Positions 3,803 through 23,449 of a stretch of 32,000 nt of DNA are shown here, piece by piece. Within the stretch, counting starts at the first letter, position 1. Each line of letters begins with the position of its first letter. The stretch spans positions 3,655,185 to 3,687,184 of the forward strand of contig CBDCDZ010000004.1 of NCBI GenBank assembly GCA_965215565.1. The letters run 5' to 3'. This DNA comes from Trueperaceae bacterium. Its GTDB lineage: Bacteria; Deinococcota; Deinococci; Deinococcales; Trueperaceae. Both the position numbers and the translations under genes were made by a program. Under the pieces are notes generated by a model that saw only the letters and a program-made list of their open reading frames with translations, ran no database searches and was not told where the DNA came from.

Positions 3803-3857
3803 TTGAGGTCAAGGTTCTGCCGTTACATCTTTGAAACTACGTGCGTTGTCGTTAAGC

Positions 3858-4795
3858 TAGCACTTCCAAAACATATTGAGACAGAGTGCCGCAGGTATCA
3901 CCTCACAATGTGCGTGCTAAGTACTTCGACTTCAATAATCTAAACTATCTCGAGGAAGTTTTTGCGCTCAGAACGAACTTCGTTGACATTCTCTAGTTTA
4001 GGTTATTTCGACACATCTACTTAAACAGTGTTTTCTACAGTGAGGGTGTCTCAGACCAGATGATACCTGCTAAGCTTATCAGCCCCGGCTGAAGGCTCCT
4101 TTGCGCGCAGAAAATAGCAGGTATCATCTGGTCAGCTACACTCTTACTTATAAGAACATTGTTTAGCACGCACTCTGAGGGATGATATCTGCGGAGAAGT
4201 GTAGCAATGAAACGTGGAAATGCTAAAAGATACGGATTCCGATGAGCTTCACGAAGTACCCCTGAAAGGGACGGAATCAACTCCGACTCCGTAGAAGCGC
4301 GAAGCGTCTGCTGGTTACGAAGTTTCCCTCCGGGAAAGCAAAATTTCATAACGGAGTGTATGCAGTAATCAATCGGAATCCATATGAGAAGAGACATTCT
4401 GCCTTCTGTATTCTGCCTTTACTTAGCACTTCCAAAACATACTGAGACAAAGGGGCGCAGATCTCTGTCCGCAAGGACTAGCGGGATTTCATCTCATAAT
4501 GTGCGTGTTGATTACGGAGTTTTCGCAAGGCGAAACAGTGTTTTTTATAGTGAGAGTGTTGCTTCGCAAAACTTACGTATACTCAAACCAGATGATACCT
4601 GCTAACTCTATTCAGCCGGCTGCTTTAGGTCTTTCGCCAAGTCTCACGTCGCGAAGCGTGAGCTAGCAAACAGTGCGTTAGATAAAGCAGTTCACAGAAG
4701 TACTGAATTGGAATAGCGCAAACATCATTTAAGAATGTGTGTGCTCGTCGGTGTTCTCCAACGTGAGACTGGCTCAAACCAAATGATACTTGCTA
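3858..4795. repeat. AT-rich, ORF-free field of a dispersed repeat family (modules A, B, C and D)
   Basis: Module A is TAGCACTTCCAAAACATAYTGAGACA at 3858-3883 and 4424-4449 (25/26 identical). Module B is CTCAYAATGTGCGTG at about 3902-3916 and 4493-4507, with a weaker copy near 4731-4745 and an inverted copy at 4163-4173. Module C is AAACAGTGTTTTYTAYAGTGAGRGTGT at 4023-4049 and 4533-4559. Module D is RACCARATGATACYTGCTA at 4054-4072, 4586-4604 and 4777-4795 on the + strand and 4115-4133 inverted. Confidence 0.75.
4054..4133. repeat. Perfect 19-bp inverted repeat (GACCAGATGATACCTGCTA / TAGCAGGTATCATCTGGTC) with a 42-nt spacer
   Basis: Read directly: 4054-4072 is the exact reverse complement of 4115-4133. 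Confidence 0.9.
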
Positions 4796-4808
4796 TAGTA
4801 TCTGAACG

Positions 4809-5588: not shown

Positions 5589-6278
5589 TTAATAATCTTC
5601 ATGGACAACGTGATTTTTCTTACTTTGAGTCTCAAGTGCGAGCTTCACCGCGCCCCCAACATGAGTTTGTAAGACGCGAACGCCGTGAGCCTGGAGCCGC
5701 TCCAAAACGCCCGTGTGTGGGTGCCCGTATCCATTTCTGCCGTAAGAAAGAACCGCCTGCTCGGGCTGCGCGGCCCTCAGGAGCGCGTCGGACGTTGAAT
5801 GTTTCGAGCCGTGATGCGCCACCATTAAGATATCGACGTCGGGCACGAACAGCTCCCTTTCGACGGGGCTCGAGAGGTCCCCCAAAAAGAGCGCCTTAGT
5901 GCCTTTTACGTCCAGCACAAAGGCCACCGAGTTGTCGTTGTCGCTCTCGTAAGGGACGGGCGGCGGGTTGAGAATCTCGAGGTCAGCCTCGCCTACGCTC
6001 AGCCTTTCGCCGCGCGTCACCTGCATCACCTTGACGCCCTTGCGCGCCGCAACCTCTAGGAGCGCGTCGAACACGGGTTTACCCGGTGCGGGTGCGCCGA
6101 TGAGGAGCGTTTGCACGGGCATGCCCTCTAATACACTGACGAGCCCTTCGATATGATCGGTGTCAGGGTGCGAGGCGACGACGAGTTCTAGTTCGTCCAC
6201 CCCTTGCGCTCGCAGCGCAGGCAGCACCGTGCCCTTCCCCACGTCGAAATCGCTGAAGGGCGTCCCGCCCCCGTCCAC
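5589..6278 (-). CDS. MBL-fold metallo-hydrolase resembling the ComEC/Rec2 C-terminal domain; apparently 5'-truncated
   Basis: Motifs SHPDTDHIEGL, HHGSKHS and GYGHPH are present. The frame stays open upstream as QRIEILVDGGG up to 6296 and is closed by a TGA formed inside the TGTCAG junction (6297-6299). The usual N-terminal DVGQGD strand is missing, and only a GTG start is available. Confidence 0.75.
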   Translation of the reverse strand: MDGGGTPFSDFDVGKGTVLPALRAQGVDELELVVASHPDTDHIEGLVSVLEGMPVQTLLIGAPAPGKPVFDALLEVAARKGVKVMQVTRGERLSVGEADLEILNPPPVPYESDNDNSVAFVLDVKGTKALFLGDLSSPVERELFVPDVDILMVAHHGSKHSTSDALLRAAQPEQAVLSYGRNGYGHPHTGVLERLQAHGVRVLQTHVGGAVKLALETQSKKNHVVHEDY

Positions 6279-6294
6279 TAAAATTTCGATGCGC

Positions 6295-6360
6295 TGTCAG
6301 ATACAATAATCTATGCGACTAAACAATAATCCTTGCGACTCTCACAATAATCTCTGCGAC
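6295..6360 (+). repeat. Transposon-end-like junction: 5'-TGT followed by three 20-bp-phased direct repeats ACAATAATCYNTGCGACT
   Basis: The repeats lie at 6303-6320, 6323-6340 and 6343-6360, differing only at two central bases. TGT lies at 6295-6297, directly against the truncated MBL gene. Confidence 0.6.
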
Positions 6361-6378
6361 TGACGTATACTCACCTGA

Positions 6379-8161
6379 GTGAGTGTCGTACCGCCTATCG
6401 ACAAATTTGTTTTGGGGGACCAATTATACTTCCTCGACTGGATAGGCGGTGTGACGCACAATCCAGGAAAGTCCAGCGAGCCCCTCATGCAGGTATTCAC
6501 GAGCCCGGTCATAACGAACAGCGGCGGCATGTCTTACGGAAAGCAGTTCGCTATGAACGTCGGCGTCGGTTTACTCCCTTACATGAAGATCGGCTCCCTC
6601 TGGTATGAAGGCAACCGTATCGGCCTGTTTCCTCTCCGCAAAGTCACCTTTAAGTTAAGAATCGCATCCGACAACCCCATCGTCTCGACGCTTCAGGAAG
6701 CTCTGGGAGATGAGCCCGGTGCGAGTAGGGGCGGGCGTACAGTACTCGGCACCGCTTTGTTCGACACGATAAGTCGAACGAACTGCTTGGTTTACCGTTA
6801 TGACACGACGCGCAGAAAGAAGAGCATACTCAGTAGCATCATCTTCCCGGTCATGGAAATTGTCAGGTTCTACTACGCGACCGGGACGAGGCTTAGCAAC
6901 GCCCTCTTCACGGGCGAGGTGCAAGGGGAGGACTTGTCGCGACTGTGCAGTGAGGGTTCGGGTCTCTATGACGACGTCGCCATCGTCAAGCTGAAGTCCG
7001 AATACGCCGACAGCTCTGCTTACATCATCGGCAGATGGCTGGGGTCGCCTCACGCCAGGGCGCAAGCGATTAAAATCTACCAGACTGTCCGCAAGGGAAC
7101 CATCAACCGGCGGGCCGACCCTTCGAGCGATCTGCACGTGTCGCCGGAAGTCACCTTTCCCTTCCTCGGACCCACCGATCTGAGTGTCCAAGGCACTTAC
7201 CTTACCCGAGAGAACGGCGAGCGACATTTCCTGGTCAGTCGTCTCCTACGCTGCACTGCACCTTTTCCCTACGAGGCGGTCACAGTCGAGCGTCCCCTCG
7301 GCAAGATCGAAGAGACGTTAGAAGGAGAAGAGGGTAATCCCATCTACAGGCGACCCTTTACTCGGAAGCGCAAACCTAAAGGCAGAATCAAACATCACAA
7401 CGAACCGAACCTCGGACTCCGAACCCTGAGCATCGACCTTTACGAAGAGAACTTCCCCGACTTAGAGAACAAACCCCTCCACAAGACCTACGGGGAAGCC
7501 TATATCCACCGCACCAAGAAGCGGAAAGAGGGCGAGGAAGGGGACGATTTCTCGAGCGGCTCCGGCGTCCACGGCGGCTCGGGTCCTAGAGGTATCAGGC
7601 TCAACACCGATCCTGCGGACGAGCCTCCTAAAGCGCAGAAAAAGCGTGCCACGCCGGTGCAGTTGGCGTTCACTAAAGACGCGCTGGACACGCTCAGGGA
7701 CGCATATAAAGTTCCCTATACGCTCCTCGATGCCGACGGTCAGGAACTATCAGAGGGGGAAGGATTCGCACTTCTCCCTAGCGAACTTCGGCTGCTGAAC
7801 GACTGGGCGGAGTACGAGGTGGGTGAGGAACAACACGCGCCACGTCCTCATCGCCGAACTCGAGCACGAATCTGGGCTTTTCACCATCTTCGAGGTCGAG
7901 CGGCGACTGAGCGGCGAGAGCGGTCGCTACCGGATGCTCATCGCCCATCTGATCACGATGGGAAGTTTGCGGTGGAATGTCAAAGCGATGCTCCAGGTCT
8001 TTGCAGAGGAGCAAAGGGTGTTCCTACCCGAAAAGAAAGCGTTGCAGGCGCTCAAGCCCAAATATTTCAATCATAAGATCGGAGAGACTGCGCCGGAATT
8101 TGCCAAGAGAGTATTCGACTACATGGAGGCACTAGCGAAGCGATCCCGTAAAGAAGGGTGA
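6379..8161 (+). pseudogene. Large (about 590 aa equivalent) protein broken by a +1 frameshift near 7799-7830; tentatively TnsE-like
   Basis: Frame 1 (6379-) reads plausibly to ...LLNDWAEYEVG, then turns into an Arg/Pro/His-rich tail. Frame 2 opens at 7799 and gives a plausible C-terminus (RHVLIAELEHESGLFTIFEVERR...NHKIGE...) ending at 8161. The central segment is K/R/E-rich and looks disordered. The TnsE resemblance comes from memory of sequence pattern only. Confidence 0.35.
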
Positions 8162-8219: not shown

Positions 8220-8501
8220 ATGGCAAACATCTCGAAAGCCGACCTCGTAGACACGCTCGCCGGGGAAACCGAACTCAACAAGAGCCAGGCGAAAGACGCT
8301 TTGGAAGCGGTTCTGAGCACCATCACATCGCACCTCGAGAAAGAGGACAAGGTCACTTTAACCGGCTTCGGCACCTTTGAGGTGAGAGAGCGCAACGCCA
8401 GAGAAGGGGTCAAGCCGGGTACGAGCGAGAAGATTCAGATACCCGCGACTAAATACCCGGCGTTCAAAGCAGGAAAGAACCTCAAGGATCGCGTGAAGTA
8501 G
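8220..8501 (+). CDS. hup: HU/IHF-family nucleoid-associated DNA-binding protein
   Basis: 93 aa. It has the typical HU layout: MANISKADLV..., GFGTFEVRERNAREGVKPGT and IPATKYPAFKAGK. A GGGGGA RBS lies upstream. Confidence 0.9.
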   Translation: MANISKADLVDTLAGETELNKSQAKDALEAVLSTITSHLEKEDKVTLTGFGTFEVRERNAREGVKPGTSEKIQIPATKYPAFKAGKNLKDRVK

Positions 8502-8534
8502 GCATTTATCTCGTTCAGCGCTTAAACTGTAAAG

Positions 8535-8801
8535 GTGACCAAGCCTTCCCTCTTCGACCCTGCCGTGCTCGATCAGTTGGAAGGCTTGAACGAGCGCTAC
8601 GCCAAGCTGAGCGCTCGCATTGAAGAGCTGGAGGCCAGGATCGACGCGGGCGTAGCGTTCGACCTGCCGCCCGACACCGCGCAACTCGGCAGCTTGGTAG
8701 ACACGCGACGTAGAGTCGAAGTTACGAAGTTTTCCGAAGGAAAGGAGGCTGTAGCGTTGCTCGAGACGCTCCTCAACGAGTTGAGAGAAGCAGCCCCTTA
8801 G
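8535..8801 (+). CDS. Hypothetical small coiled-coil protein
   Basis: 88-aa ORF with a GTG start, plausible composition and no overlap with neighbours. I recognise no motif. Confidence 0.4.
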   Translation: MTKPSLFDPAVLDQLEGLNERYAKLSARIEELEARIDAGVAFDLPPDTAQLGSLVDTRRRVEVTKFSEGKEAVALLETLLNELREAAP

Positions 8802-8860
8802 TTCTGCTGCCACCTTCCCCAATCGCATCCTATCTAATCGTCTAGTTTAGGGAGGTTCTC

Positions 8861-9547
8861 ATGGCACTTCAAGTCATCGGCGCAGGCACAGGACGCACCG
8901 GCACTATGTCGCTCAAGCTCGCCCTAGAACAACTCGGCTACGGCAGGTGCTATCACATGGTCGAGCTGCTCCAACATCCCGAGGACGTGGTCCACTGGGA
9001 GCGGGCGAATAGGGGCGAGCCGGTGGACTGGGACACGCTCTTCGCAGGCTACCGTGCTACCGTGGATTACCCCGGCTACCTCCACTACAAGACGCTCATG
9101 CAGCGCTACCCTAATGCCAAAGTCATCCTTACCGTGCGCGACCCCGACGCCTGGTATGAAAGTGCTCTCGCGACGATCTACCGTGCCGAGCCCGGTTTGG
9201 CGCAAAAGCTCAAAATGGGCTTAGCCCTCCCTTTCTCCCCGAAGCTCCGCAAGCTCCTGCGCGTGTTCCAGCTCTCGGGCGAGGTTTGGGAGCGGGAGTT
9301 CGAGGGCAGGTTCGAGGACAAGGACTTCGCGGTAGCGAGGTTCGAGCGGCACAACGAAGAGGTCAAGCGCACTGTGCCCGCCGACAAACTTCTCATCTAT
9401 GAGGTCAAGCAGGGGTGGGGACCTCTTTGCGAGTTCCTGGAGGTATCCGTAGCCGACACGCCCTTTCCCCGCTCTAACGACCGACAGGCGTTTCAGGCGC
9501 AGCAGAGGCGGGGATTGCGAGCCTTACTCAGGAATGACATCGCTTAG
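8861..9547 (+). CDS. Sulfotransferase-family protein
   Basis: The N-terminal PAPS-binding-type loop VIGAGTGRTGTMSLKLALEQLGYGRCYHM and the size of about 228 aa are typical of small bacterial sulfotransferase-family proteins. A GGGAGG RBS is present. Confidence 0.65.
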   Translation: MALQVIGAGTGRTGTMSLKLALEQLGYGRCYHMVELLQHPEDVVHWERANRGEPVDWDTLFAGYRATVDYPGYLHYKTLMQRYPNAKVILTVRDPDAWYESALATIYRAEPGLAQKLKMGLALPFSPKLRKLLRVFQLSGEVWEREFEGRFEDKDFAVARFERHNEEVKRTVPADKLLIYEVKQGWGPLCEFLEVSVADTPFPRSNDRQAFQAQQRRGLRALLRNDIA

Positions 9548-9578
9548 CGGAGAGGTTGCTCAAAACCGTTCTTCACAT

Positions 9579-9617
9579 GAAAGAACACCCGCTACTCGGT
9601 GTAGCGGGTGTTCTTTC
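9579..9617. terminator. Perfect 17-bp stem / 5-nt loop hairpin downstream of the sulfotransferase gene
   Basis: GAAAGAACACCCGCTAC (9579-9595) pairs with GTAGCGGGTGTTCTTTC (9601-9617). Confidence 0.7.
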
Positions 9618-9720
9618 GGTTCGAGTCGACATGTGGTGTCATTGTTGCGAGAAGCAACTGTAGAGCGTTGTTCCAACCTCTCATGCTACGGTCGCTGCTA
9701 GTCGATGCCTTCTGGCATTT

Positions 9721-9761
9721 ATACCTAGGCGCTCCGCAAGCAAAGCGGAGCGCCTAGGTAT
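9721..9761. terminator. Perfect 17-bp stem / 7-nt loop hairpin between convergent genes
   Basis: ATACCTAGGCGCTCCGC (9721-9737) pairs with GCGGAGCGCCTAGGTAT (9745-9761). A TTT run follows on the + strand. The hairpin lies 4 nt from the stop of the minus-strand lipoprotein gene. Confidence 0.7.
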
Positions 9762-9764
9762 TTA

Positions 9765-10823
9765 CTATTGGAAGTTGAAAGAATCAGAGGTATTACAGGT
9801 GCCGGTTCTACCTCTATCCGACGCCGTGTGAGTCGTCGACTCCGAGCCGGACACTTCGATGTTCAAGCCTGCAACCCAGTAAGGGATTCTAGGCAGCGCC
9901 GAACCGTAGCGGCTGCTGGTGTAAGTGCCTGTCCGACTGCCCACCTCTTTAACAACGGTTCCTGAAACTGTAACGTTTTTCCGAACGCTGAGGCTCAAGT
10001 CTCCTTTGTTGGGCGTGTATATCCGACCCACATTTCCGGTTCCGGCGAATAAGCCGTATACCGAGGGGTTTCCTGGTAACTTGATCCAGGTGAATTTTGC
10101 CGCGCCGCTTGCGCCCACAACACGTCTGGCCCGGAGCCGTTTTTTGTAGTAGGTATCTACGCAGCTATCGGCGGCTAGCTCAGCTTTGGGGATCAGATAT
10201 TCTTTGATGAAGGAAATCAACCCTTGCGACTCCAAAACCGACGTACTCTCTACTGCGGCTGTAGAGCGCTCGATAGGGCTGTAGGCGACACCTAAATCCC
10301 TATTTGCCTGGGTGCTGAGAGACTCAGGCGTAGCAACAGCGCTCAGGTCGACCTGGGATAGAGAATCGACTGGGATAGCAACAATGTTATCGTCAGTGAC
10401 AAGGTAAACGATGTCCGCGATCTGTACTAGACCCTTCTCGTTTAGAATACTTTGAAGGTAAGGGTCGTGAATGATGGTCCGGGGTAAGAGGTCTTGATCA
10501 GCGAGAGATTCACGCTCCTCTGCACTGAGTTGAGCGAAATCCTCCTCCATAGAGAGGTTTTGCTGCTCAATTGTGTGTCTTTCCGAAGTGTAGCCCATGC
10601 GTTGCTCGAGACTATTCAAGAACGCTTCATCCTGATTGATGAGGCTACCCCAATAGGTTGCGAAGGCGTCGAAATCCGGAAATGTAAGGCGACCGTCGAC
10701 AAGCGACGCTTGAGCGGCAGAGTCGTATTCCTCTGGGGTTTGTACTGAGTTTTGCGTACCACACGCAGTTAAACCCACTGTTACAGACAGTAGTGCGACT
10801 AGTAGTAAGGATGTGCTTTTCAT
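9765..10823 (-). CDS. Lipoprotein of unknown function
   Basis: I prefer the internal ATG at 10823, which is preceded by AGGAGA. The signal peptide carries a lipobox (MKSTSLLLVALLSVTVGLTAC). GC content is lower than in the flanks. Confidence 0.65.
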   Translation of the reverse strand: MKSTSLLLVALLSVTVGLTACGTQNSVQTPEEYDSAAQASLVDGRLTFPDFDAFATYWGSLINQDEAFLNSLEQRMGYTSERHTIEQQNLSMEEDFAQLSAEERESLADQDLLPRTIIHDPYLQSILNEKGLVQIADIVYLVTDDNIVAIPVDSLSQVDLSAVATPESLSTQANRDLGVAYSPIERSTAAVESTSVLESQGLISFIKEYLIPKAELAADSCVDTYYKKRLRARRVVGASGAAKFTWIKLPGNPSVYGLFAGTGNVGRIYTPNKGDLSLSVRKNVTVSGTVVKEVGSRTGTYTSSRYGSALPRIPYWVAGLNIEVSGSESTTHTASDRGRTGTCNTSDSFNFQ

Positions 10824-11253
10824 AATTATCTCCTGTTTGAAAGAACTCGGGTCAGTCAAAGCTGAATCCAACAGACGGGACTTTGGAAACTCAGGGGTGT
10901 GAGTGCCGAATGTTAGATACTCGAACGAATCATGCTTACGGTGCTAAACGTAGCGTTGCTCCAGGCGCTTTGCAGCAAGGTGTCGAAATTTAGGTAGGAT
11001 GTGCCCGCTCTACCTATGCAGCTATGTACCGTGAAGAAAGCTTCCCTGCACCTACCTCCCTTTCTTTAGATTTAGGCTGTAAGCGTTACTAGTAACTTCA
11101 GCGATCAGTTGATCCACTAACAACCTTGACCTAAATCAAAAGCCTTCGAGGGTTCCCGGACGGAGCCACAAATCCTGGAACCTATTTGGAACCAAATACA
11201 AGTAAGGCTGTAGGCAACTTCGTTGAACTTGCGAAGCCGACAAGTAAGAAAGG

Positions 11254-11535
11254 ATGACGACCATGAAATATTTGCGCTTAGTTTGTCTTGGTATCCTCTT
11301 ATTAGGGTTTGGTGCACAGGTCTACGCCGAGCCAGCGCCCCCTTCGCAGGCTCAACACGAGAGCGAAGCGAGCGAGCATACCGACGCCGAAGACGCTTCT
11401 GGGCAGCATGAAGGTGGCTCGGACGAATCTACCGACCCTGAAGACCCAGGTGACTCAGTGGGGATGCCCTGTCCTTCAGGGGTCTGTGACAATAACGGGG
11501 GTGGCGCACGTAATCCGGTCGCTGCCGACCCGTGA
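11254..11535 (+). CDS. Small secreted acidic protein with a Cys pair
   Basis: Predicted signal peptide MTTMKYLRLVCLGILLLGFGAQVYA|EP. The mature part is D/E-rich and contains CPSGVC. Confidence 0.45.
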   Translation: MTTMKYLRLVCLGILLLGFGAQVYAEPAPPSQAQHESEASEHTDAEDASGQHEGGSDESTDPEDPGDSVGMPCPSGVCDNNGGGARNPVAADP

Positions 11536-11597
11536 GCCTCAATTCAGTCCGCAGTTGAGGCGAAGCAGGACGAACCGAGCGCCCAGGCTGGCTTCTT

Positions 11598-11786
11598 ATG
11601 AACACGGTCGGAAAAGCGACGCCGGACGAGCAGGTTACCGAGCAGAGCACTGAGGACGAAGGACACGACGATTCCAAACAAATTCTGAAAGACCTCGAGA
11701 TTGAGAAAGCTAAGGCGAGGGTGAAGGTTGCAGACGTCACCCTCGCCGCTTTAATCAGGCGACAACGCGAGAAAGATGAACCGTAG
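11598..11786 (+). CDS. Hypothetical small charged protein
   Basis: 62-aa ORF that fills the gap before the convergent regulator. No motif recognised. Confidence 0.25.
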   Translation: MNTVGKATPDEQVTEQSTEDEGHDDSKQILKDLEIEKAKARVKVADVTLAALIRRQREKDEP

Positions 11787-11791
11787 GTGCG

Positions 11792-14302
11792 CTAAAGAGC
11801 TAACTCGGCTCTCAACTGCTGAATGCGGCTCAACACAATAGGGGTGCGCGGGTCGCTGGGCGACAGACGTTCCGGCAGCGTCTCCCACAACGCCAAATCG
11901 TCCACCATGACGGTCGAGAGATAGTATTGCGCCTCGAGGTCTCCTGTAGACATTACGGCCTCTCTCAGGGCGCGTTCGAGGAAACCCTGCTCCTCGATGA
12001 GCCGTGGCGACTCCGCTGCCGCCAACAAAGGACCACGGTAAAGCTCTATCGCCTCGGAAATGTCGCCGCGCTTCAAGTGTGAGAGGAGCGCATTGAAATC
12101 GGCCTCGACTTGCCCGCTCAGGCGGTAGGGACGTGTCGAAATCGGAACGTGTTCGCGGAGCCGCGCAAGCAGGGATTTGATACTCGCCGCCGCTGCGTCC
12201 TCGCCGTATAAGTAAGAGGCCAAGCGCTGTCCGCTCAGACCCTCCGGGTAGAGTGCGAGCAGGGCGAGCACCTCGAGTTGGCGGGTGGACAAGGTGAGTA
12301 TTTGACCATCGAGCCGGACTTGCGGCGGTCCGAGGAAGGTCAGCTCGAGGTGCGCCTTACCCTGCTGCGTCCCGGCAACGACCTTCTGAAAGATCGTTGC
12401 GGGACCGACGAGGTAACGCTCGCCGCTCGTGCCGAGCGCACTGAGGTAAGGCTGCACGTCTTCCATCACACGGTGCGCCGTCACCGTGTCGCCGCGCTCG
12501 ACGTAGGTGAAGGCCAAATAGCTACAAGCGCGGGCATAATGTACGGCTTGAATAGGCGACTTGTAATGGTCCACCGTCCGCTGTAGGTAAGGCTCTGCCG
12601 CTGCTGCGTCGCTCAGAGAAAGTGCCATACCGAGGCTGAGGTCGGCTGCCGCGCGGTCTGTGGCAAGGTGCTGTGCGCGTTGCGCCCACTCCAGCGCAGC
12701 TTCGTGCTTGCCGAGTTCGAGCAGTGTACGCACGAGGTTGATGGCGTTCTCGCCGAACTGCGCCCTGTCCAAAGATTGCGCGTTGGCTTCGTAGTAGGGC
12801 AAGGCCCGGTCTGCCTGACCTTGCGACAACCAATAGTCACCCAAGGTCGAGCGGACTAGGGCCGCGAGCCCCGGCACGCTGGAGGCGAGATGGGCCTCTG
12901 CCTCTTCGAGCAGTGTTTCGAGTCCTGCCGTTTTACCCGTTAAAATACGCCCGAACGCCCACTCGTTGGCAGTGACCAACCACCGATAGGTATTTTTCAA
13001 ATCGTGCTTATCGAACAGCTCCAACGCCCACCCCGCCCAGGTCGTCCCCACATCGTAGCGGCCGACTAAAATGTAAGTCGCAGCGAGCGACCAAGCGTTT
13101 CTGACCACAGCGTACCCGTCCTCTTCCGCCTCGGCTTGCTCGACTGCCTCGTGCAAAACCTCGATGGCTCGTTCGGGCGCGTCGTAGTTCAAGGCCAGAC
13201 CATACTCGTAAAGCGTAAAGGAGGTCCGTGCGAGCGCGACCGCACGTTCCGCCTGTGTAAGGTGGGTGTCGCCGCCACTCAAGGGTGCGTAGAACGCACG
13301 CAAACGAGGGGCATCGTGGTGCTGGAGAAAAGTCTCGATACGCGCCAGAAGGGGTGCGACTTGACCGACACGTCGCGCCGCGACCAGGAGCCAAAACAGC
13401 ACGGCTTCGTTCTCTTGGTGCGTTTCGTCTAGCTGATTCAAGTGGCGCCACAACTGCCGATAGAGCCCCTGCGCTAAAAAGTAATTGCCGGACGCCTCGA
13501 GGATGGTGGGCACTTGCTCCGGTTTGAAGCGCACCGACAATTCCAATGCTTCAGACCATCGTTCCGTGTAGAGAAGGCTGGTGAGCACCTCACCGATGCT
13601 CGCTTCCTCCTCGAAGCCTTGTACGTACCAGTAGCCCTTCGCCGTCGGACGTAACGGAACGGGTCCGCCGTAGTGCTGATGGAGGAGCGCGAGAAAAGGC
13701 TCGAGCGCGCTGCGGCTTTCGGCCAGTAGGTCTGCGAGTACTGCGTCCGGAAGATCGGGGCTCAACTCACGTGCGTCGCCTAGCGACAAGGTGAGGGCGT
13801 CGCGGTCGAGGACGAGGCTGTTCGGGTAGGACAGCGGCAGCGCCTCATCGCTCGTCAAGATTAGGGAAGCCGTGCCGAGCGTGTTGCCTACGTCGGCGAC
13901 GAATTGGGGGTAGAGGTCGGCGTAGGAGATCGCGATCTGGAAGGGGTCGAGGGCGTCGCGGCAGCGTTGCAGGACCGATAGCCCGTAGGGGTAGGGCATA
14001 CCGTGCTGGAGGAGCGGACGACCGAGTGCACGGGTGAGCGCGTCGGCGAGACGGTTACCCAAGTAGACGGGGTCGCCCTGATCGTCCGGCTCCAAACTGA
14101 GCCAGGCGAGAGGTCGGTCCTCGGTCGGTAGACGATGGATGATCTGATGACTGCCCCAGGCCGGGTCGCCGGTAAATAAAACGGGCCCCTCGTGGTGCCG
14201 GATGCGCTCGGTATAGCGCGTGAGCCATGTGCTGTCGGCAAGGCGACCTAGAGTGACTGGCGCGGCGGATTCCCCTTGTCCGTACGAGTGTCTGCTATCC
14301 AT
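11792..14302 (-). CDS. Large TPR-containing transcriptional regulator with a C-terminal SARP-type winged helix plus BTAD domain
   Basis: The C-terminus (LELTFLGPPQVRLDGQ...LSTRQLEVLALLALYPEGLS...YRGPLL) fits the OmpR/SARP wHTH plus BTAD pattern. The middle is TPR-like. The N-terminus resembles the MalT/STAND family but has no Walker A. I prefer the start at ATG 14302 (GGGGGAA RBS) because the first 59 codons of the tracked ORF look non-coding. Confidence 0.7.
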   Translation of the reverse strand: MDSRHSYGQGESAAPVTLGRLADSTWLTRYTERIRHHEGPVLFTGDPAWGSHQIIHRLPTEDRPLAWLSLEPDDQGDPVYLGNRLADALTRALGRPLLQHGMPYPYGLSVLQRCRDALDPFQIAISYADLYPQFVADVGNTLGTASLILTSDEALPLSYPNSLVLDRDALTLSLGDARELSPDLPDAVLADLLAESRSALEPFLALLHQHYGGPVPLRPTAKGYWYVQGFEEEASIGEVLTSLLYTERWSEALELSVRFKPEQVPTILEASGNYFLAQGLYRQLWRHLNQLDETHQENEAVLFWLLVAARRVGQVAPLLARIETFLQHHDAPRLRAFYAPLSGGDTHLTQAERAVALARTSFTLYEYGLALNYDAPERAIEVLHEAVEQAEAEEDGYAVVRNAWSLAATYILVGRYDVGTTWAGWALELFDKHDLKNTYRWLVTANEWAFGRILTGKTAGLETLLEEAEAHLASSVPGLAALVRSTLGDYWLSQGQADRALPYYEANAQSLDRAQFGENAINLVRTLLELGKHEAALEWAQRAQHLATDRAAADLSLGMALSLSDAAAAEPYLQRTVDHYKSPIQAVHYARACSYLAFTYVERGDTVTAHRVMEDVQPYLSALGTSGERYLVGPATIFQKVVAGTQQGKAHLELTFLGPPQVRLDGQILTLSTRQLEVLALLALYPEGLSGQRLASYLYGEDAAAASIKSLLARLREHVPISTRPYRLSGQVEADFNALLSHLKRGDISEAIELYRGPLLAAAESPRLIEEQGFLERALREAVMSTGDLEAQYYLSTVMVDDLALWETLPERLSPSDPRTPIVLSRIQQLRAELAL

Positions 14303-14488
14303 ACATTCCCCCAAAGACCGTGCTAGAGCACATGAGTACATGGAAGATACGAGGCTTGCCCTGAATTTCATCTGACTGCAAGCCTGTGGAGGCTGCTTCA
14401 TACGTCTGAAAAAGTATGTTGCGGTTCGCAACAGGTGGACGCAGACACCTGGGCTTGGTCTAAAACCTTGGACACTCAAAGTATACAG

Positions 14489-15461
14489 CTAAGCGGCTAG
14501 GCTCACCTCCTGAGTCTCTTTTCGCTGCTGGGATAGTTCAAAGGTGTCAGGCGTCTCATAGCCGAGCGAGCTGTGCAGCCGCTCGCGGTTGTAGTAGACC
14601 TCGATATATTCGAACACCGCGACGCGGGCGTCATCGCGTGTGGCAAAGCGCTCAATGGGATAAACGAGTTCGCGTTTTAGTGTCGCCCAAAAGCTTTCAA
14701 TGATGGCATTGTCGAAGCAGGCTCCTTTGCCTGTAAAGCTCGGCAGCATCTTGTGCGCTTCGAGTTCGCGCTGATAAGCGTAGGAGGTGTATTGAGAACC
14801 CCTGTCGCCTAGGTGAAGGCTAAGAGCCTTTGAGCTTCGCTCTAACCTTGTGATGAATCAAACCGGGCTGGGGCTTGCGCCGCGTCGTGGCTGAGCATAG
14901 GGCTTGCAGCACGAGGTCAGTCTTCATATTGTCACTCATGGCGTAGCCCACAACGCGCTTAGAGAAGCCGTCAATGACGCCCGCTAGATAAAGCCAGCCC
15001 TCGGCGGTCGGCAGATAGGTAATGTCAACATGCCATACCTGATTGATCGCTGTTGGGCGTGGTTGTTCCAGCAACAGGTTCTGGGTCTCGAGATCACAGC
15101 GCTCATACTTAGTGCGGTGTTTCTTGTGACTCACAGCGTAGAGCCCTTCACGACGCATAAGACGTTTGACTCTGCCTAGCGAACACGAAACCTGCTGCTT
15201 CTTGAGTTCGGCGTGGACACGGGGGCTGCCATATCTGCCCTTATTCTTCTCGAATACCGCTTTGATCTTCTCCAACAGCTCGGCGTTGCGCTTTTCGCAT
15301 TTGCTCGGCTCCCGCTGCTGACGAGCCCGCCAGTGATAGTAGCTGCTCCTAGCCACGCCCAAGACCTTGCACAGCGCCGAGACGGAGAACTCGCTCTGGT
15401 GCGCCTCGATGAACGCGCACTTTAGGTTGTCTGTTTCGCAAAGTAAATGGCGGCCTTTTTT
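14489..15461 (-). pseudogene. IS3-family transposase OrfB (DDE/integrase core), interrupted by a 40-bp insertion
   Basis: It is split into tracked ORFs 14820-15362 and 14489-14749. Deleting 14809-14848 in silico restores the conserved GLIHHSDRGSQYTS motif in one frame. Confidence 0.85.
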
Positions 15462-15745
15462 ACGATCGCCAACTCTGTTTCAAGTCGCTTCACCTCCGCC
15501 TGGAGCCGTTTCAGTTCGGCTTCGTCAGCGGTCGGTTGTGCTCTTTTATGACCCATCACGAGTCGTCCCTCGCGGTATTGTCTACGCCACTTATGGATGT
15601 TCGACTCAGCAATACCCAAGCTCCGTGCCGCCTCGGTGATGCCGTAGCCCTTTTTCTCTACCAGTTCCACCGCATCGATCTTAAACTCCATTGGATACTG
15701 CCGAACCACCCTCTTGCCTTCTGCCATCGTCTTCCTCCTTAGCAA
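15422..15745 (-). CDS. IS3-family transposase OrfA (HTH)
   Basis: Typical IS3 OrfA sequence: YPMEFKIDAVELVEKKGYGITEAARSLGIAESNIHKWRRQY followed by a leucine-zipper-like C-terminus. Confidence 0.9.
   Translation of the reverse strand: MLRRKTMAEGKRVVRQYPMEFKIDAVELVEKKGYGITEAARSLGIAESNIHKWRRQYREGRLVMGHKRAQPTADEAELKRLQAEVKRLETELAIVKKAAIYFAKQTT
15455..15461 (-). promoter_or_regulatory. Programmed -1 frameshift heptamer AAAAAAG of the IS3 element
   Basis: The minus strand reads GTA AAA AAG GCC. The -1 frame continues as ...FIEAHQSEFSVSALCKVLGVARSSYYHW (OrfB). Confidence 0.75.
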
Positions 15746-15783
15746 AGTCTATTCCTACTAACTTTGTCCAAGGTAGTGGGCCA

Positions 15784-16080
15784 ATGCCAACCTTAGCAAG
15801 CGAAGGTGCTCGAGGAATAGTACGTAAAATCACAAAGAGATGTACTTTAACGTTTGATGAACGCTCAACGGGAGTTGACGAGGAGAGGCTGCGAAAGCGA
15901 ACACTCGCCCGTTCGTTGTCTGGATTGAAGGGGGTCGAGGCTCTCCTCGACGACGCTTTCAAAGCGCTCTATCCGGACACACTTTTCCTTCGTAAAGACG
16001 AATTTTGCGGAGGTTGCCCGGAGACGAAATCGCTCAACGCCAACCCTTTAGCGACCACTGAGAAAGCCGCCAGGTCTTGA
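15784..16080 (+). CDS. Hypothetical protein, or a gene remnant next to the IS end
   Basis: The ORF begins just outside the IS terminus, with an ATG at 15784. A 10-bp stem (16060-16069 with 16091-16100) spans its stop. No motif recognised. Confidence 0.25.
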   Translation: MPTLASEGARGIVRKITKRCTLTFDERSTGVDEERLRKRTLARSLSGLKGVEALLDDAFKALYPDTLFLRKDEFCGGCPETKSLNANPLATTEKAARS

Positions 16081-16396
16081 ACCGATCCGACGGCTTTCTC
16101 TCGTTGTAGTTCCCCCGGCGGAGCACTCTTATTTTAACGCCGTCGTCATATCGAGAACAGGTGTGTACGGACTAGCTAATTCGGGGTTGGAGAACCTACA
16201 AAGAAAAAGCTCGAGGGGACCTCCAACCGGGGGGCGGGATGTAGAAGGTACGGTCCTCGAGACTTTCCTCAGCCTAGCCGCTCTCGGTCCCTCCGAATGA
16301 GCCATTGCGTTACCGAACGTCACTGTGAAAAGGTTCACTCTTTCCGCCGAGGTGTAACAAATAATCGGAGTAGAGCACAGATTTACTTGCTTTCAC

Positions 16397-16690
16397 ATGT
16401 CTATAATTGTAAACAAAAGTATGATGCTAAAGGTGAAAAAGTCGAGTAAGCGCACCTCTTACGAACGGGCATTCTTTCGAGCAGTAGGTGCACGCATAGA
16501 GCTGTTCAGGTTGCGGCGCGGGCTGAGCTTGGAGGAAGTTGCTGCCCATACAGTGCATCCGCCCGAGTGGCTGAAGGGGCTCGAGGCGGGAGTGGAGGAA
16601 CCGAGGCTCGACGACCTATTCGGCATCGCCAAGGCGTTAGGCACCGACCCCAGCGAACTCGTGAGGGTGGAGCCGAAGGTGTTTTCTTGA
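16397..16690 (+). CDS. XRE/Cro-C1-family helix-turn-helix regulator
   Basis: HTH_3 pattern: IELFRLRRGLSLEEVAAHT...LKGLEAG...PRLDDLFGIAKALG. The start is ambiguous: a TATAAT at 16402-16407 would favour ATG 16421. Confidence 0.7.
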   Translation: MSIIVNKSMMLKVKKSSKRTSYERAFFRAVGARIELFRLRRGLSLEEVAAHTVHPPEWLKGLEAGVEEPRLDDLFGIAKALGTDPSELVRVEPKVFS

Positions 16691-16740
16691 TACGGTCAGC
16701 TCTCACGGCAGCATAGGGGAACGTGTGACACGATGAGGGC

Positions 16741-16980
16741 ATGTCAGGACGCCGCAAGGACCCGGAATACCAGGCTTACAACCGCAAGGTCGGGGAGAGG
16801 ATCAAGGAGCTGAGGCGGGATAAGAACCTCTCTCAGGAGGAGTTTGCTGCCGAGGTCGGACTCAGCCGCTCGTACCTGAGTTTGCTGGAGACGGCTAAGC
16901 AGGACCCGTCGCTCTCGACGCTCTTTAGGGTGGCGAAGGTTTTGGGGTTGAGTGTGAGTGAGTTGCTCGAGGTGGAGTAG
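16741..16980 (+). CDS. XRE/Cro-C1-family helix-turn-helix regulator
   Basis: Canonical pattern: IKELRRDKNLSQEEFAAEVGLSRSYLSLLETAKQDPSLSTLFRVAKVLG. Confidence 0.85.
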   Translation: MSGRRKDPEYQAYNRKVGERIKELRRDKNLSQEEFAAEVGLSRSYLSLLETAKQDPSLSTLFRVAKVLGLSVSELLEVE

Positions 16981-16996
16981 CGTCACCAGAAACTCT

Positions 16997-18664
16997 TCAG
17001 TAATCTATATTCATAGCTGCACTATCGGCGATTTCGTCTGCTGCTAAAGATAGAGCGTGCCTAAGTGCTTCCTGATTTTCATTCTTGAGCAAGCTGAATC
17101 GCGATTGACTCTGTTCGGGCAAGAGGGTTACGCCCGCCTTTTGAAGAAGTCCTCTATACGCAGGATTAGCCACGAATCCTATCATGTTGGAATAATCGTG
17201 CTTATACTTTTCTATGAAATACATAAGCCTTTCGTAAACCCGCGCTTGAGCTGTTTTATCGCGTTTAGATAAGAGGAAGTCGTAATTCAAAACAGCGGGC
17301 TCTTTCACGTAACGCAGAGGAACAGGTCCGTAAAGCCCGGATAAGAAAACAATGTCGATATCGTTCTCTAGTCCCTGTAAACTTTTCACGACTCGCTTAT
17401 ATGACGATGAGTCGGTGTACGGTTTAGCCTGAGAACAGGTGAGAATTAGACAGATAGGTTTCTTGGCCTTAAAACGCCTTTTACGTATATCGAAGGCAGT
17501 AGGGTCATTTCTGACTGGCTTCACCTCCACTGCTTCCGGTAGAGGCTCGCCCTCAAGCAAGGCGCGGAGCTGGGCTCTTGGACGAGCTAGTTCAACGAGA
17601 TAGTCTTCCAGTACGCCTTTCTCCCGAGCAGCAATTGCCTTATCAAGGATTTGCATATCCATTTCAAGATTGTGAAGTGCAGTCGCAGCATAAACGACAC
17701 TCTTACGTCCCCGCTTAACCTCACCTTTTTTGGCTCGCATTACGAAAACATCTTCATGCACATCGCGCGAGTAGCAGACTTGACATGTACATGGATAGGA
17801 CAAAAGTTCCCAAAGACGTCGTTCTTTGTAATTGGGGGTGATGTATTTAAGTGAGCGAGCTTTCTGAATATAACCACTAGTGTCGAAAGTAGTCGCCCCT
17901 GCATGTAAGAGGAAAGGGACGAGAAGTCCGGTGACACCAAAAACATGCATCGGTAACTCTCCTGCAGCGCCACGTACAGCGCGGACATAACGGACGATCT
18001 CCTGCTGTCTCCCCGCCTTTCTTAACGGAACTATGGAACCTAGCCCTACCCCGTGAACGATCTGCATGAGATTTTCCTTGTCGAGACGTTCAAGCACCTC
18101 CTGCGTGAAGATGGCAGCTTGCTCGGGTGTATTCCCGTGAACAGGAACTACAAGATTTATATCTTTATCCGGTCTCTCAGAAAGAATTCTTGCGCAGTAA
18201 AGTGCATTTTGAAGTGTCTTGTTCAGTCGGTTACGCGACTCTTCTTCAGTTAATCCAGGCGGTATCGGGTAATCTAAAGACACAATCCTCGAAGCGCCTA
18301 AAGCTAGCTGGAGTTCGAGAATCTTTTCCTGCATGTTATGTTCAAAGAAGCCGTAGCGATCCAATCCAGCGGGTGGACCCTGCATGAACACGTAACCACC
18401 TGAGTCAGCTAAAATGTGTGCATGATAATCTAAGTCGAAATTGCCATTGTAGTGTTTACGCAGAGGTTTAGACAGCCACATCTCGAGTTGTTTTGGTAGT
18501 ATGGCACCGTAGTTCAAAAAGTGTAGTGCTTGAACCATCACGGGTATATTACGCCTCAATAAACCTTGTTCCATGCCATGCAAGAGTTGCTTATACATGC
18601 CGCCGCCGTTTGGCGTTGTACCTGTCATCATAGCCGTAACTGGGTATAGGATAGAATTGTGCAC
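16997..18664 (-). CDS. TGT-superfamily (DpdA-like) transglycosylase fused to a C-terminal ArcS-like (DUF5591-type) domain
   Basis: TGT hallmarks are in the canonical order: DSGG (residues 87-90), GVGLGSIVPL, HVFGVTG...TFDTSGY (Asp261), and the zinc motif C292-x-C294-xx-C297 with H331-N. Residues 400-555 carry C410-SQA-KPY-TD-S419, which matches the ArcS PC-x3-KPY-x2-S signature as I recall it. Confidence 0.8.
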   Translation of the reverse strand: MHNSILYPVTAMMTGTTPNGGGMYKQLLHGMEQGLLRRNIPVMVQALHFLNYGAILPKQLEMWLSKPLRKHYNGNFDLDYHAHILADSGGYVFMQGPPAGLDRYGFFEHNMQEKILELQLALGASRIVSLDYPIPPGLTEEESRNRLNKTLQNALYCARILSERPDKDINLVVPVHGNTPEQAAIFTQEVLERLDKENLMQIVHGVGLGSIVPLRKAGRQQEIVRYVRAVRGAAGELPMHVFGVTGLLVPFLLHAGATTFDTSGYIQKARSLKYITPNYKERRLWELLSYPCTCQVCYSRDVHEDVFVMRAKKGEVKRGRKSVVYAATALHNLEMDMQILDKAIAAREKGVLEDYLVELARPRAQLRALLEGEPLPEAVEVKPVRNDPTAFDIRKRRFKAKKPICLILTCSQAKPYTDSSSYKRVVKSLQGLENDIDIVFLSGLYGPVPLRYVKEPAVLNYDFLLSKRDKTAQARVYERLMYFIEKYKHDYSNMIGFVANPAYRGLLQKAGVTLLPEQSQSRFSLLKNENQEALRHALSLAADEIADSAAMNIDY

Positions 18665-18704
18665 AGGAAGACCTTACCGTACGAAGAGCGATAAAGCAAG
18701 ACCT

Positions 18705-19151
18705 TCAAGTAGGAAGCAGGAATTCGTACCGCAACATTTTGCTTATATTCCTATGCGGGTTATCTACGATAAGAACGGTTTCAGCGTTGCGGTAAAAGCT
18801 GCCCCAGAGGAAGTTTGCTGACCCCACTAGAGCGATTTCATCAGTGATCAAACCCTTGCTGTGCAAGTGAGGAACAATGTGGTGTTTATCAGGCGTAAAG
18901 CGCGATAAAAGTGCATTGAGCCTCCGGTCCGGTTCTCTCGTATAGATTGAGGTTCGATGCCCCTGTCCTTGTAGATAAAGTAGCAAGGTGCTCAGTCGTT
19001 GCGGTCCCGATTTATTGACAGGATAAGGTAGCTGTAGGGGTAGATCGTCCATCCAAGGGCTGACAATTGCGATGTCACCCTCGCTACTCAACATAATCTG
19101 AGGAACCAACCACGGCAGCTTCTTAGAGGCTAAGAACACGGTTAGGTGCAC
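18705..19151 (-). CDS. PLD-superfamily (single HKD, Nuc-like) nuclease
   Basis: HSKGLITDEIALVGSANF gives an HxK(x4)D(x5)GSxN motif. The size of about 148 aa would require a dimer. The 5' end overlaps the helicase stop, so the exact start is uncertain (19151, 19139 or 19094). Confidence 0.8.
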   Translation of the reverse strand: MHLTVFLASKKLPWLVPQIMLSSEGDIAIVSPWMDDLPLQLPYPVNKSGPQRLSTLLLYLQGQGHRTSIYTREPDRRLNALLSRFTPDKHHIVPHLHSKGLITDEIALVGSANFLWGSFYRNAETVLIVDNPHRNISKMLRYEFLLPT

Positions 19152-22100
19152 CGCTCTCGAGAACCATCGGTAAGTTTTTCCCCTCTCTAGCCCTTTCGGA
19201 AAGTTCTTTGTTGCTCATCTCTATTATCAGCCTCGATAGTATTGACTCAGCGAGTAACCTTGAAGGCTCCTCGTCACCGATCTGCTGAGTACCGACACAA
19301 ACGGGGCAGCCATCAGTTTCTAAACAGGTGTATTGGAATGGCTCCCCACTCGCTCGTTGGTTGATCAACCGGGTAAGTTCGTTTGAAACTTCGACGAAAA
19401 TATCCTCTGGTAGCGTACTCTGGGGATCGGGTAGGTTGAGGCGTGCCACCGTACGCGTACGTAATAGTTGGGCGTCTATACCATCGCGCAATGCCTCTTC
19501 AGCTAAACCGACAGGGCATAGCACAACACGTAGCAGTTCTTGGTAAACCTGAAGTGCATCAGCCTCAAGTGCTTTCTGGAAAACTTCGATAAGACCCGCG
19601 CCCCCCTCAAAAACTTCCCACACCGAAACGTTATTGTCGCCGATCGCAGACTCTAAATCTTCACGGTGCACGCCGACGACACTTGCTACTGCCCGATGAA
19701 GCAGCTCTCGAGCGGTGGCAAGTGCCACTCCTCGGAGTTGCTGCGGCTGCGCTCGTCCCTCACTAAGCTCGTTGAGCAAGTCATCGAGCTGCCATCCAAG
19801 TGCTTGCGTGTCTATCGTATACACCATTGGCTCAAGGTAACGGACTTCAAAGCGGTCTGGATCGCCGCTAGCCCTGAAATACTCTGCGTCCGCGTCTCTA
19901 TCGTTTGAGTTACTCTTCAGATAACGATGTGACTCAACGTCAGAACCTAAAACTCTGGTCCTCCCTTGTCCCTCAAATACACGCAGTCGCTCGCTAATAC
20001 ACGTTCCCGTATGATTTTCGAAACGCCTCTCTAAGTAGGGCTGGGCGTAGAGCTTTCGAAATTCAAGTTGCCCGCCACATTCACAAACCCGCTTACTAAG
20101 ACTGTGAACCTTGTAGCATTGCTTACAAAATTTAACGACTTGGCGTCCTTGACGGTCCGTACGGACGCCGCGTAAAGGTACAATCTGAGGACGTACACCC
20201 CCTTCTACACTTAAACCCTCAATGGGTAAACGCACCCTGACCCTGCTTCCGTCAACCCAATCAGGGTGGTGTTCCGTATCGAGGGTTGCCAAAGTCGTGT
20301 CTCCATAATGACGATAAGTCAGTCTATACGGTAAATAAAGACTCGCTAAGTTGGAAACTTGCTCCTCTATGTAGTCAGAGCTGCCGCTAGAGTAACGCTT
20401 TTCGAAACGCAAAGGCTTTACGGTTTGAAAGTAAGATGAGGGTAGGAGAGAGCTGATGGAGACCGGACAGTTGTTCTCTACGCAGGTGTGGCTAGGTTCG
20501 CTTACTGCGTCGACGCCAGCGTGTAAATAGTAAAGCGAACCTAGCGTTACTTTTATGTCTTGTGGAGACGATTGGAAGGACCACCCTTTATTCCAGTGCT
20601 CCTTTAACGTGAAAAAGAAGTTGTGGAGCCGCTCGTAGTCAGAGATGCTTCCTTCGCCTGTTCGTCTTAGGTTATAGAGGTGAGCCCTAAGGTTAGTAAG
20701 CAAGGTCACTACTTCTGCGAGATGCTCGGCACGTTCAGGTTCATCAACGAGAATCTGGCTTACTTGGCTGATAAGACTATTGGTAGTAAGACGCTGTGTC
20801 GGCTGTGCTCCTCCAGCGAGGTAGTTGTCGATCTGCTCTCGGAATGCATCTAAGTCATTCATCAACTCGGTGGGAAAAGCGCTTCGAAGTTGAGTCAAAT
20901 GGCGTCTCAAATCGAGGATAGGTCCGGTTCTCTCTAATTCTCTATCAGCCCAGCCAATCAAAGCATCTTTGAATCCAGAAAGATCGAAGTAGCCTGCAAA
21001 TCTGTCTCTAAAATTGTCAAAGTCTTCCTGATACTTAGCACTCAATGTTGGGCAGGCTTCGAGCTGGTCGAGGATGTAACGTGCTATGGCCTTAGGTGGA
21101 AAACTTTCGTTTTGTTGGTAGTACTTGGCATATTGACTACGGTCCCGCTCCAGTCTCTCGTGTAATTGTTGAATAACCGCATTGTCCGTATTGAGGGGGA
21201 TGTCGAAAACGCCATTTAGTAACCGTTGACGTCTAAAAAGTGCGAAGTTATCCGGAGCGTCGTTACCCAATATAAGGATGCTATGACTTAGATCGCCTTG
21301 CTTTCGTCCAGCGCGTCCGCGCCTCTGAGTAAAACCTGCTAGAGAACGCGGTGGTCTGTATTGGACAACAGCTTTGATCTGTTCATTGTCCACGCCTACC
21401 TCCAGTGTAGGCGAAGCGACAAGAAGATTGGGACTAAGATTTTTACCCGTCTTCGATGTGACTTGAGCTACTGAGAGAGGCTCTTCACTAACTACTTCTG
21501 CTGGTTCATAGCAATCTTTGCCACCATGTATTCCTCTCCAGCACTCGCCCGCACTATAGATATCGCAGCGCATAGGTTCCTTGCGAGGGCAGGGTTCATT
21601 ATTCCCATTTAACGGGTAAGAAATATCTTCGACTACCGTGCGGAATGCCCAAAGCCCTTGATTGTGTTCAGCGTCTCGAAGCTGATTAAAAAAGCGCCCC
21701 GTCTGATCGAGAGAATCCGCAAAAATGATAACCTTCTCTTGAGGGGTCAAAAAAGCGTGCCCGAGTGCCATAGCGCACTGGATGAGTAAGGAAGACGGAG
21801 CAGGGCTTGACTCATCAGTTGGCGTCTGAAGCGTGACAAACCCTTCTATTCCTCCCAACTCTTGCTCTGCTTCGTAGGCACTTGAAAGAGCCTCGTGTGC
21901 TCGGACTCCCTGGTCACTCCCGTAAAATAATCGGCTCGCGAAACGTATAGGGTCCGAAATGGTTGCGCTGGCAGCAATGAGCGTGAGTTCTTTGCCAACA
22001 AGTTTCTTCAGCCGATTGATGAGCTGATGAACGTGGACGCCGTAAAGCGAATCGTACAGATGCGCCTCGTCGATAACAATTCCGCTGAGTCCTGTAAGGA

Positions 22101-23010: not shown

Positions 23011-23449
23011 CGTCGACCTCTACTCAACTCTGTATTCAGTTGCTTCGAAGCGGTGCTCACTTCATCGGAAGTCTTTGACATTTTATTGAACTCCTCTAGC
23101 ACTCCAGCGCGTTCGCTCTTTGCGCTCCCCAAGCAGAGATTGTGGAGAAATAGTCTGAGAAAGGTTACTCCACATTCCCTTTTCTATCTGCTAGCTCTTT
23201 CCCCTTCCTTCAGGAACTCATCGGTAAAAATTCACAAGAACTAAATGGAAGCGTAACACGACGTAACGACCTGATGCCATAGTGGATTAAGGGCGTGAGG
23301 AACTTCACAACTACCGTTAGAAATGGCCCTAATCTTCCGCTGAACCAAAGGCATTACGCACAGCATCTTGAGACTAGCTTCTTATATTCGAAATAGGTTA
23401 GCGTTATGAAGCTTACGGCGACTTCAAAGTTTGAGAGAGTGAGATAAGA

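Follow-up and report, generated by a model that had tools for sequence, protein, structure and literature searches.

The window, a 32,000-nt stretch of DNA from a Trueperaceae bacterium of the Deinococcota, carries a comEC gene that is cut short. The remaining 3' fragment, which encodes the metallo-beta-lactamase domain, lies on the minus strand (5589-6294) and directly adjoins a short segment opening with 5'-TGT on the plus strand. This segment is followed by three directly repeated sites, by a single gene that reads inward and by a long row of further genes that we presume to be cargo.

The comEC fragment was recognized by the NCBIfam ComEC_Rec2 profile, of whose 663 positions the open reading frame covers 468-663 only. 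When aligned with relatives, homology to intact ComEC begins at the Arg codon 6291-6293: intact relatives read ...FLDVGQGDSTLIRLPxR-TEILVDGGG..., and the window protein opens with R-I-E-I-L-V-D-G-G-G, the stop codon falling within TGTCAGAT. A tblastn search with the ComEC of a relative gave a match spanning 6293 to 5631, and the best matches of the window ComEC came from MAGs (66%), a Trueperaceae MAG (55%) and Deinococcus (48%). The TGT occupies positions 6295-6297 and abuts the last comEC-homologous codon, which confirms the placement of a TGT terminus at the breakpoint in the original prediction. In relatives, the 5' part of comEC, comEA and holA adjoin comEC; none of these was found in the window. 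Relatives with syntenic comEC-kinase loci are free of the repeat-plus-gene module, and among the loci fetched there was no other member of the gene family inside the end that is flanked by comEC. The inserted element explains why comEC is a pseudogene here, and natural competence has probably been lost in this strain.

Downstream of a Ser/Thr kinase gene, in the place taken by holA in relatives, we also noted an AT-rich stretch (3850-4800, GC 0.46-0.50) made of two direct repeat units of about 510-590 bp, with an internal 51-nt inverted repeat (4022-4072 / 4115-4165). Its open reading frames are without family match, and the stretch may represent a small mobile insert, MITE-like or of another type.

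A break in comEC is not peculiar to this genome. In the closest relatives the gene is interrupted by a phage-like region (L019, 9400-10100) or by an unrelated insert (L101, 2100-2345), which would be in line with another kind of mobile element, such as a prophage or an integrase island, having broken comEC in the window as well, the repeats then being its arm-type or att-associated sites. We consider this highly improbable: no integrase or phage genes adjoin the window junction, the breaks in L019 and L101 fall at codons that differ from that of the window, and the junction itself aligns with the left ends of Tn7-family elements (see below). The truncated ComEC proteins of L019 and L101 were accordingly rejected as instances of the same insertion, being due to other elements at other breakpoints, and so was that of Deinococcus sp. 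QL22 (L102), in which comEC is merely frameshifted. Taken together, comEC seems to be hit repeatedly in the clade of the host, either as a casualty or as a landing site.

The junction itself reads cgc / TGTCAGAT / ACAATAATCTATGCGACT / aa / ACAATAATCCTTGCGACT / ctc / ACAATAATCTCTGCGACT / gacg on the plus strand. The 8-bp segment TGTCAGAT (6295-6302), which aligns with the termini of related elements, thus leads into site 1 (ACAATAATCTATGCGACT, 6303-6320), site 2 (ACAATAATCCTTGCGACT, 6323-6340) and site 3 (ACAATAATCTCTGCGACT, 6344-6361), all three being putative TnsB-binding sites that emerged from the window sequence, a repeat scan and the left-end alignment. The three copies of ACAATAATCNNTGCGACT start at 6303, 6323 and 6344. 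The three direct repeats that had been predicted are therefore present; their supposed exact 20-bp period is not, the spacing being 20 and then 21 bp. The sites are mutually alike at 16/18 positions and, together with the terminus, are packed into 67 bp. In a search with ACAATAATCNNTGCGACT at up to 3 mismatches they were the sole matches on both strands of the 32-kb window; a shuffle control led us to expect 0.16 matches, and 0/100 shuffles gave three. At the repeats, neither an Rfam family nor a tRNA nor a sigma-70-like promoter was detected.

The gene next to the repeats (6379-8161, plus strand) begins 17 nt past site 3 and reads inward. It is followed in frame 1 to about 7815 and continues in the frame of an open reading frame at 7823-8161, which is clean in this next frame; in the longer open reading frame (6379-8076) the final ~85 residues seem to be out of frame. 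The apparent 1-nt shift lies at 7790-7830 in the non-homopolymeric sequence GAGGAACAACACGCGCCACG and cuts most of a C-terminal TnsE_C-like domain off the rest of the protein. Either a real pseudogenization or an assembly or sequencing error may underlie this shift. The window protein had no match in Pfam, NCBIfam, PHROGs or PADLOC, and the original prediction had left the gene unrecognized. A database search revealed homologs in Neisseria and Ralstonia that are full-length (575-590 aa) and 26-32% identical, one homolog being named "TnsE C-terminal domain-containing protein" in UniRef. Homologs compared over the full length were at 23-29% identity, and the identity to any relative retrieved is put at about 18-29%. 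The frameshift-repaired protein aligns with its homologs from end to end, across the shift. In an exhaustive profile search the family comprised 1852 cluster representatives at E <= 1e-3, of which 408 reached E <= 1e-30. Pfam TnsE_C matches 7/80 family members (best E 3.8e-12), the window protein staying below threshold. An AlphaFold2 model of the repaired protein (pLDDT 85.7, pTM 0.84) was compared with the PDB by Foldseek; the best 7 matches were all TnsE C-terminal domains, and nothing else scored. The top match, 9d5l_A, had a probability of 0.99 and a target TM-score of 0.63, at a marginal E of 0.037. Likewise, hhalign paired the C-terminal domains of the window protein and of Tn7 TnsE from plasmid R721 (E 0.011). 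Judged by its homologs and its predicted fold, the gene is a remote TnsE homolog, that is, a putative transposon target selector, and we refer to it as tnsE-like.

A metagenome scan for homologous loci yielded 80 loci, from which 71 distinct upstream regions were compared. In 43/71 of these regions, three mutually similar 18-mers at a spacing of 19-21 bp precede the tnsE-like gene, and the third site ends mostly 10-21 nt ahead of the gene start. The self-similarity of the repeats is highest in the window (49/54; shuffle maximum 31), and the 20 + 21 spacing is common to the window and several relatives. An alignment of 10 representative left ends (the window and nine related elements, 72 nt) showed a mean column identity of 74%. 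All ends agree at T1, at the ACT of site 1 and at the AAC with which site 2 opens, and the window requires only one inserted nucleotide, before site 3. The window terminus aligns with the related termini TGTGAATTCT, TGTCAATTCC and TGACAATTCC, and the first bases of the soil relatives L084 and L096 are the identical TGTCAGAT; several subfamilies open with TGA or TCT in place of TGT. T1 and the ACT of site 1 lie 26 nt apart in the window, as they do in L003a, L013 and L081; the corresponding distance in Tn7 is 27 nt. A two-site pattern scan of the genome contigs brought up one clear relative, L013, the other matches being mostly chance.

The layout of a terminus, three phased sites and an inward tnsE-like gene thus matches dozens of elements base by base, and the genes that flank them differ. 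The flanking gene is the 3' end of lipA in at least 28/69 loci and comM in two (L081 and L089); in L089 the flanking open reading frame matches ChlI and a truncated Mg_chelatase domain, which confirms comM. A megablast search of the comM-inserted locus L081 against plasmids gave no match.

Among the relatives, complete elements allowed both ends to be read. A Neisseria element (L003, 258-9912) starts behind lipA with TGTGAATTCTGA and three CGCTATTTGMGACT sites on a 20-bp phase, followed by the tnsE-like gene and a cargo of GmrSD, HEPN and methylase genes; tniQ, tnsC, tnsB and tnsA then follow on the opposite strand, and the far end shows the inverted sites AGTCGCAAA... and closes with ...GAATTCACA. 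The target site duplication (TSD) is CGAAT at both ends, and a second, degraded element stands in tandem behind the first. A complete 11-kb element in L042 (52-11147, TSD GCGAA) has the same order of left end, tnsE-like gene, cargo (here type III restriction-modification), tniQ, tnsC, tnsB, tnsA and right end. At the tnsA-proximal end of the Neisseria elements, the sites are ~45-52 bp apart. In the lipA group, we observed that insertion occurs in the last lipA codons, with the left end providing the stop codon (TGTGA...), and that a fresh and an older element can be arrayed in tandem at the lipA site.

A complete Tn7-like element of ~22 kb is also present on plasmid P3 of Deinococcus gobiensis. 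Here, a weakly related tnsE-like gene lies behind phased ...AAATGCTACT sites, and TniQ, TniB, TnsB and TnsA are encoded ~22 kb off on the circular record, adjoining three inverted AGTAGCA sites. The P3 element (L018, 11880-12000; L104, 18950-19050) appears to split an MmeI-family restriction-modification gene. At the termini presumed for it, no 5-bp duplication was readable, and its junctions may therefore have been rearranged or wrongly placed.

These comparisons bear on a second explanation, in which the repeats would primarily be operators or iterons of the downstream gene instead of a transposon end. In its favor, the third repeat lies 17 nt from the start codon, as it does at mostly 10-21 nt in the relatives, so that any protein bound there would cover the 5' leader. 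A secondary operator role is plausible, given that the tns promoter of Tn7 is repressed by TnsB occupying the right end. As the primary function, however, we regard it as very unlikely. The complete relatives carry the sites also in inverted form beside tnsA, together with 5-bp duplications; no sigma-70-like promoter overlaps the repeats, and these start 8 bp from the cut in comEC. Moreover, members of different phyla have the module, variously at lipA, comM and comEC and on a plasmid, which argues for a mobile unit and against a vertically inherited promoter. The alternative offered in the original prediction, that of iterons or operators for the downstream gene, therefore fails as the primary reading, and the Tn7-family end with TnsB-type sites proposed there is well supported by the comparison with complete relatives.

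The identity of the end could also be assigned from the relatives. From its tight packing, the repeat array had been likened to a right end. This does not hold, as the array packed at 20 bp stands at the tnsE end in this lineage, which is tnsA-distal and the reverse of the situation in Tn7. The window end is accordingly the tnsA-distal end, conventionally the left end. For comparison, Tn7L was read directly; the prototype Tn7 was represented by its R721 copy (L103). Tn7 and the window share a 5'-TGT terminus, an 8-bp terminal segment, direct repeats of roughly 20 bp and a TnsE-type target selector whose C-terminal domain has the same fold. The Tn7 core given in the original prediction, ACAATAAAGTCTTAAACT, is correct: the Tn7R string was found 100% identical in >60 plasmids, beside tnsA. 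Compared directly with the window repeat, ACAATAAAGTCTTAAACT also agrees at 12/18 positions, ACAATAA and ACT among them, as had been predicted. In contrast to the window, where the packed array and the tnsE-like gene are at the tnsA-distal end, Tn7 has a packed array of four sites at its tnsA-proximal right end, and its tnsE closes the tnsABCDE operon. Sequence similarity between Tn7 TnsE and the window protein is barely detectable, as reflected in the hhalign score given above.

Tn6022-like elements offer a closer match. They belong to the Tn7 family, in a TnsB clade with Tn5053/Tn6022, and form the AbaR backbone in Acinetobacter; the target of Tn6022 is comM. Like the window, they have a remote TnsE homolog at the left end that reads inward and is set apart from tnsABC, TGT/ACA termini and a defense-rich cargo, and the same TnsE-like family as in the window occurs in comM (L081, L089), the Tn6022 site. 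They differ in the target, which is comEC in the window, and in the host, here a member of the Deinococcota; tniQ and tnsABC are also absent from the window. TnsE proteins have been described as two very divergent branches with <10% identity and the same predicted structure, and in the Tn6022 type the gene for the remote branch is found close to the left end, where it is distant from tnsABC and lies on the opposite strand (PMC10293859). The Tn6022-type TnsE supports transposition into the F plasmid, and for both Tn7 and Tn6022, TnsE is reported to steer transposition into replicating or conjugating DNA (PMC11014353).

The lipA elements of Neisseria, Ralstonia and Gammaproteobacteria (L003, L042, L001, L013 and at least 28 metagenome loci) have the same left-end geometry as the window: a terminus of 8-10 bp is followed by three sites phased at 20 bp, and the tnsE-like gene begins 10-21 nt further on. 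The site core, which reads ACAAYRAT....GCGACT in Ralstonia and L013, is common to them and the window. They are oriented as lipA and complete with tnsA-B-C-tniQ and a 5-bp TSD, whereas the copy in the window interrupts comEC in mid-gene and runs against the direction of its target gene, with no core genes in view.

So far, our findings suggest that 6295-6361 is the tnsA-distal left end of a Tn6022-like Tn7-family transposon that inserted into comEC of a Deinococcota host, a reading to which we assign a probability of about 85%. It rests on the sequence anatomy, the disrupted target, the TnsE-like fold and the homology that links both end and gene with complete elements.

Considering this together with what is known of Tn7 and Tn6022, we infer TnsB binding, an operator function and the present activity state of the end. 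By analogy to these two systems, TnsB would bind the three sites, assemble this left end with a right end into the transpososome and, together with TnsA, cut at the terminal TG/CA. The connection between transposase and target selector would be made by TnsC; the selector may be TniQ (with or without TnsF) or TnsE, the latter being the type that in Tn7 and Tn6022 directs the element to DNA undergoing replication or conjugation. The target would be duplicated over 5 bp, TGCGC (6290-6294) being the predicted sequence. As site 3 ends 17 nt before the start of the tnsE-like gene, bound TnsB could also repress this gene. An intact insertion would then be expected to show AGTCGCANNGATTATTGT near ...ATCTGACA, followed by TGCGC, the 5' part of comEC and comEA.

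Within the window, this counterpart was not found. The predicted right junction ACATGCGC (ACA, then TGCGC) gave no match, and neither an inverted site cluster at up to 5 mismatches nor the reverse terminal 8-mer ATCTGACA or a degenerate right end was present in the window. Pfam and NCBIfam scans of the large open reading frames revealed no tnsA, tnsB, tnsC or tniQ and no remnants of them in the window, and tblastn with the Neisseria TnsA, TnsB, TnsC and TniQ proteins gave no match there either; the statement in the original prediction that tnsA, tnsB and tnsC are missing from the window thus stands. The only rve-domain matches in the window came from a degraded IS3-family copy (~14489-15745) with OrfA at 15422-15745 and OrfB split into 14820-15362 and 14489-14749.

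This IS3 copy lies within the presumed cargo (8220-25457, the right limit being provisional), whose membership is deduced from the position inside the end. Beginning next to the tnsE-like gene, the cargo comprises genes for HU (8220-8501), a sulfotransferase (8861-9547) and a TPR regulator (11792-14479), two HTH genes and, further on, genes for a TGT/DUF5591 protein (16997-18664), a DpdK-like protein (18705-19151), a DpdJ-like protein (19123-23010), a queuosine-precursor transporter (23450-24061) and QueC (24062-24757). The low-GC cluster at 16997-24757 resembles a 7-deazaguanine DNA-modification/restriction (Dpd) system with unusual parts. The TGT-family protein is fused to an archaeosine-synthase-like DUF5591 and was not called DpdA by PADLOC, and DpdB-I were not seen in the cluster. 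Cargo of such kind is typical of Tn7-like elements (PMC8649781). The GC content is 0.44-0.55 over 17-25.5 kb and at the host level of 0.58-0.64 beyond ~25.5 kb. At 28722-31381, where GC is host-like, a gene for an XPB-type helicase (XPB_DRD domain) is paired with one for a DUF790 (Bax1-like) nuclease.

The frameshift in the tnsE-like gene, the IS3 debris and the lack of tnsABC-tniQ in 25.7 kb suggest a decaying or non-autonomous copy. Carried further, the element may be a dead fossil, in which the right part with tnsABC-tniQ, the right end, the 5' half of comEC and comEA have been deleted and which would be immobile even in trans. We give this possibility a little less than an even chance; it is a sub-case of the left-end reading and does not contradict it. 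It would account for the frameshifted tnsE-like gene and the degraded IS3 copy inside the element, for the missing Tns core genes, right end and comEC 5' part in 25.7 kb, and for the return of GC to the host level (0.58-0.64) after ~25.5 kb. On the other hand, Tn7-like elements can reach up to 140 kb (PMC8649781), and the right end may therefore lie past the window. The near-identity of the sites (16/18) is unlike the outcome of long neutral decay, and the frameshift could be a sequencing error.

Extending the left-end reading in another direction, a lineage of Tn6022-like elements in the Deinococcota may use comEC for dedicated homing, or this left end, with its nearly perfect sites, may be part of a non-autonomous island with Dpd-like defense cargo that is still mobilized in trans; both are rather unlikely. 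If comEC homing were true, a second competence gene besides comM would have been chosen as a safe site. If mobilization in trans were true, the mobilizing Tns core would be encoded elsewhere in the genome.

The kind of element was already known, and the current understanding of Tn7-family transposition is unchanged by the left end described here. For the host, one boundary of a genomic island is fixed at base resolution, and the Tn6022-type group would gain an example that is inserted into comEC and resides in the Deinococcota. The left-end signature, a TG terminus followed by three 20-bp-phased sites and tnsE, may serve as a search key for islands that lack a Tns core.
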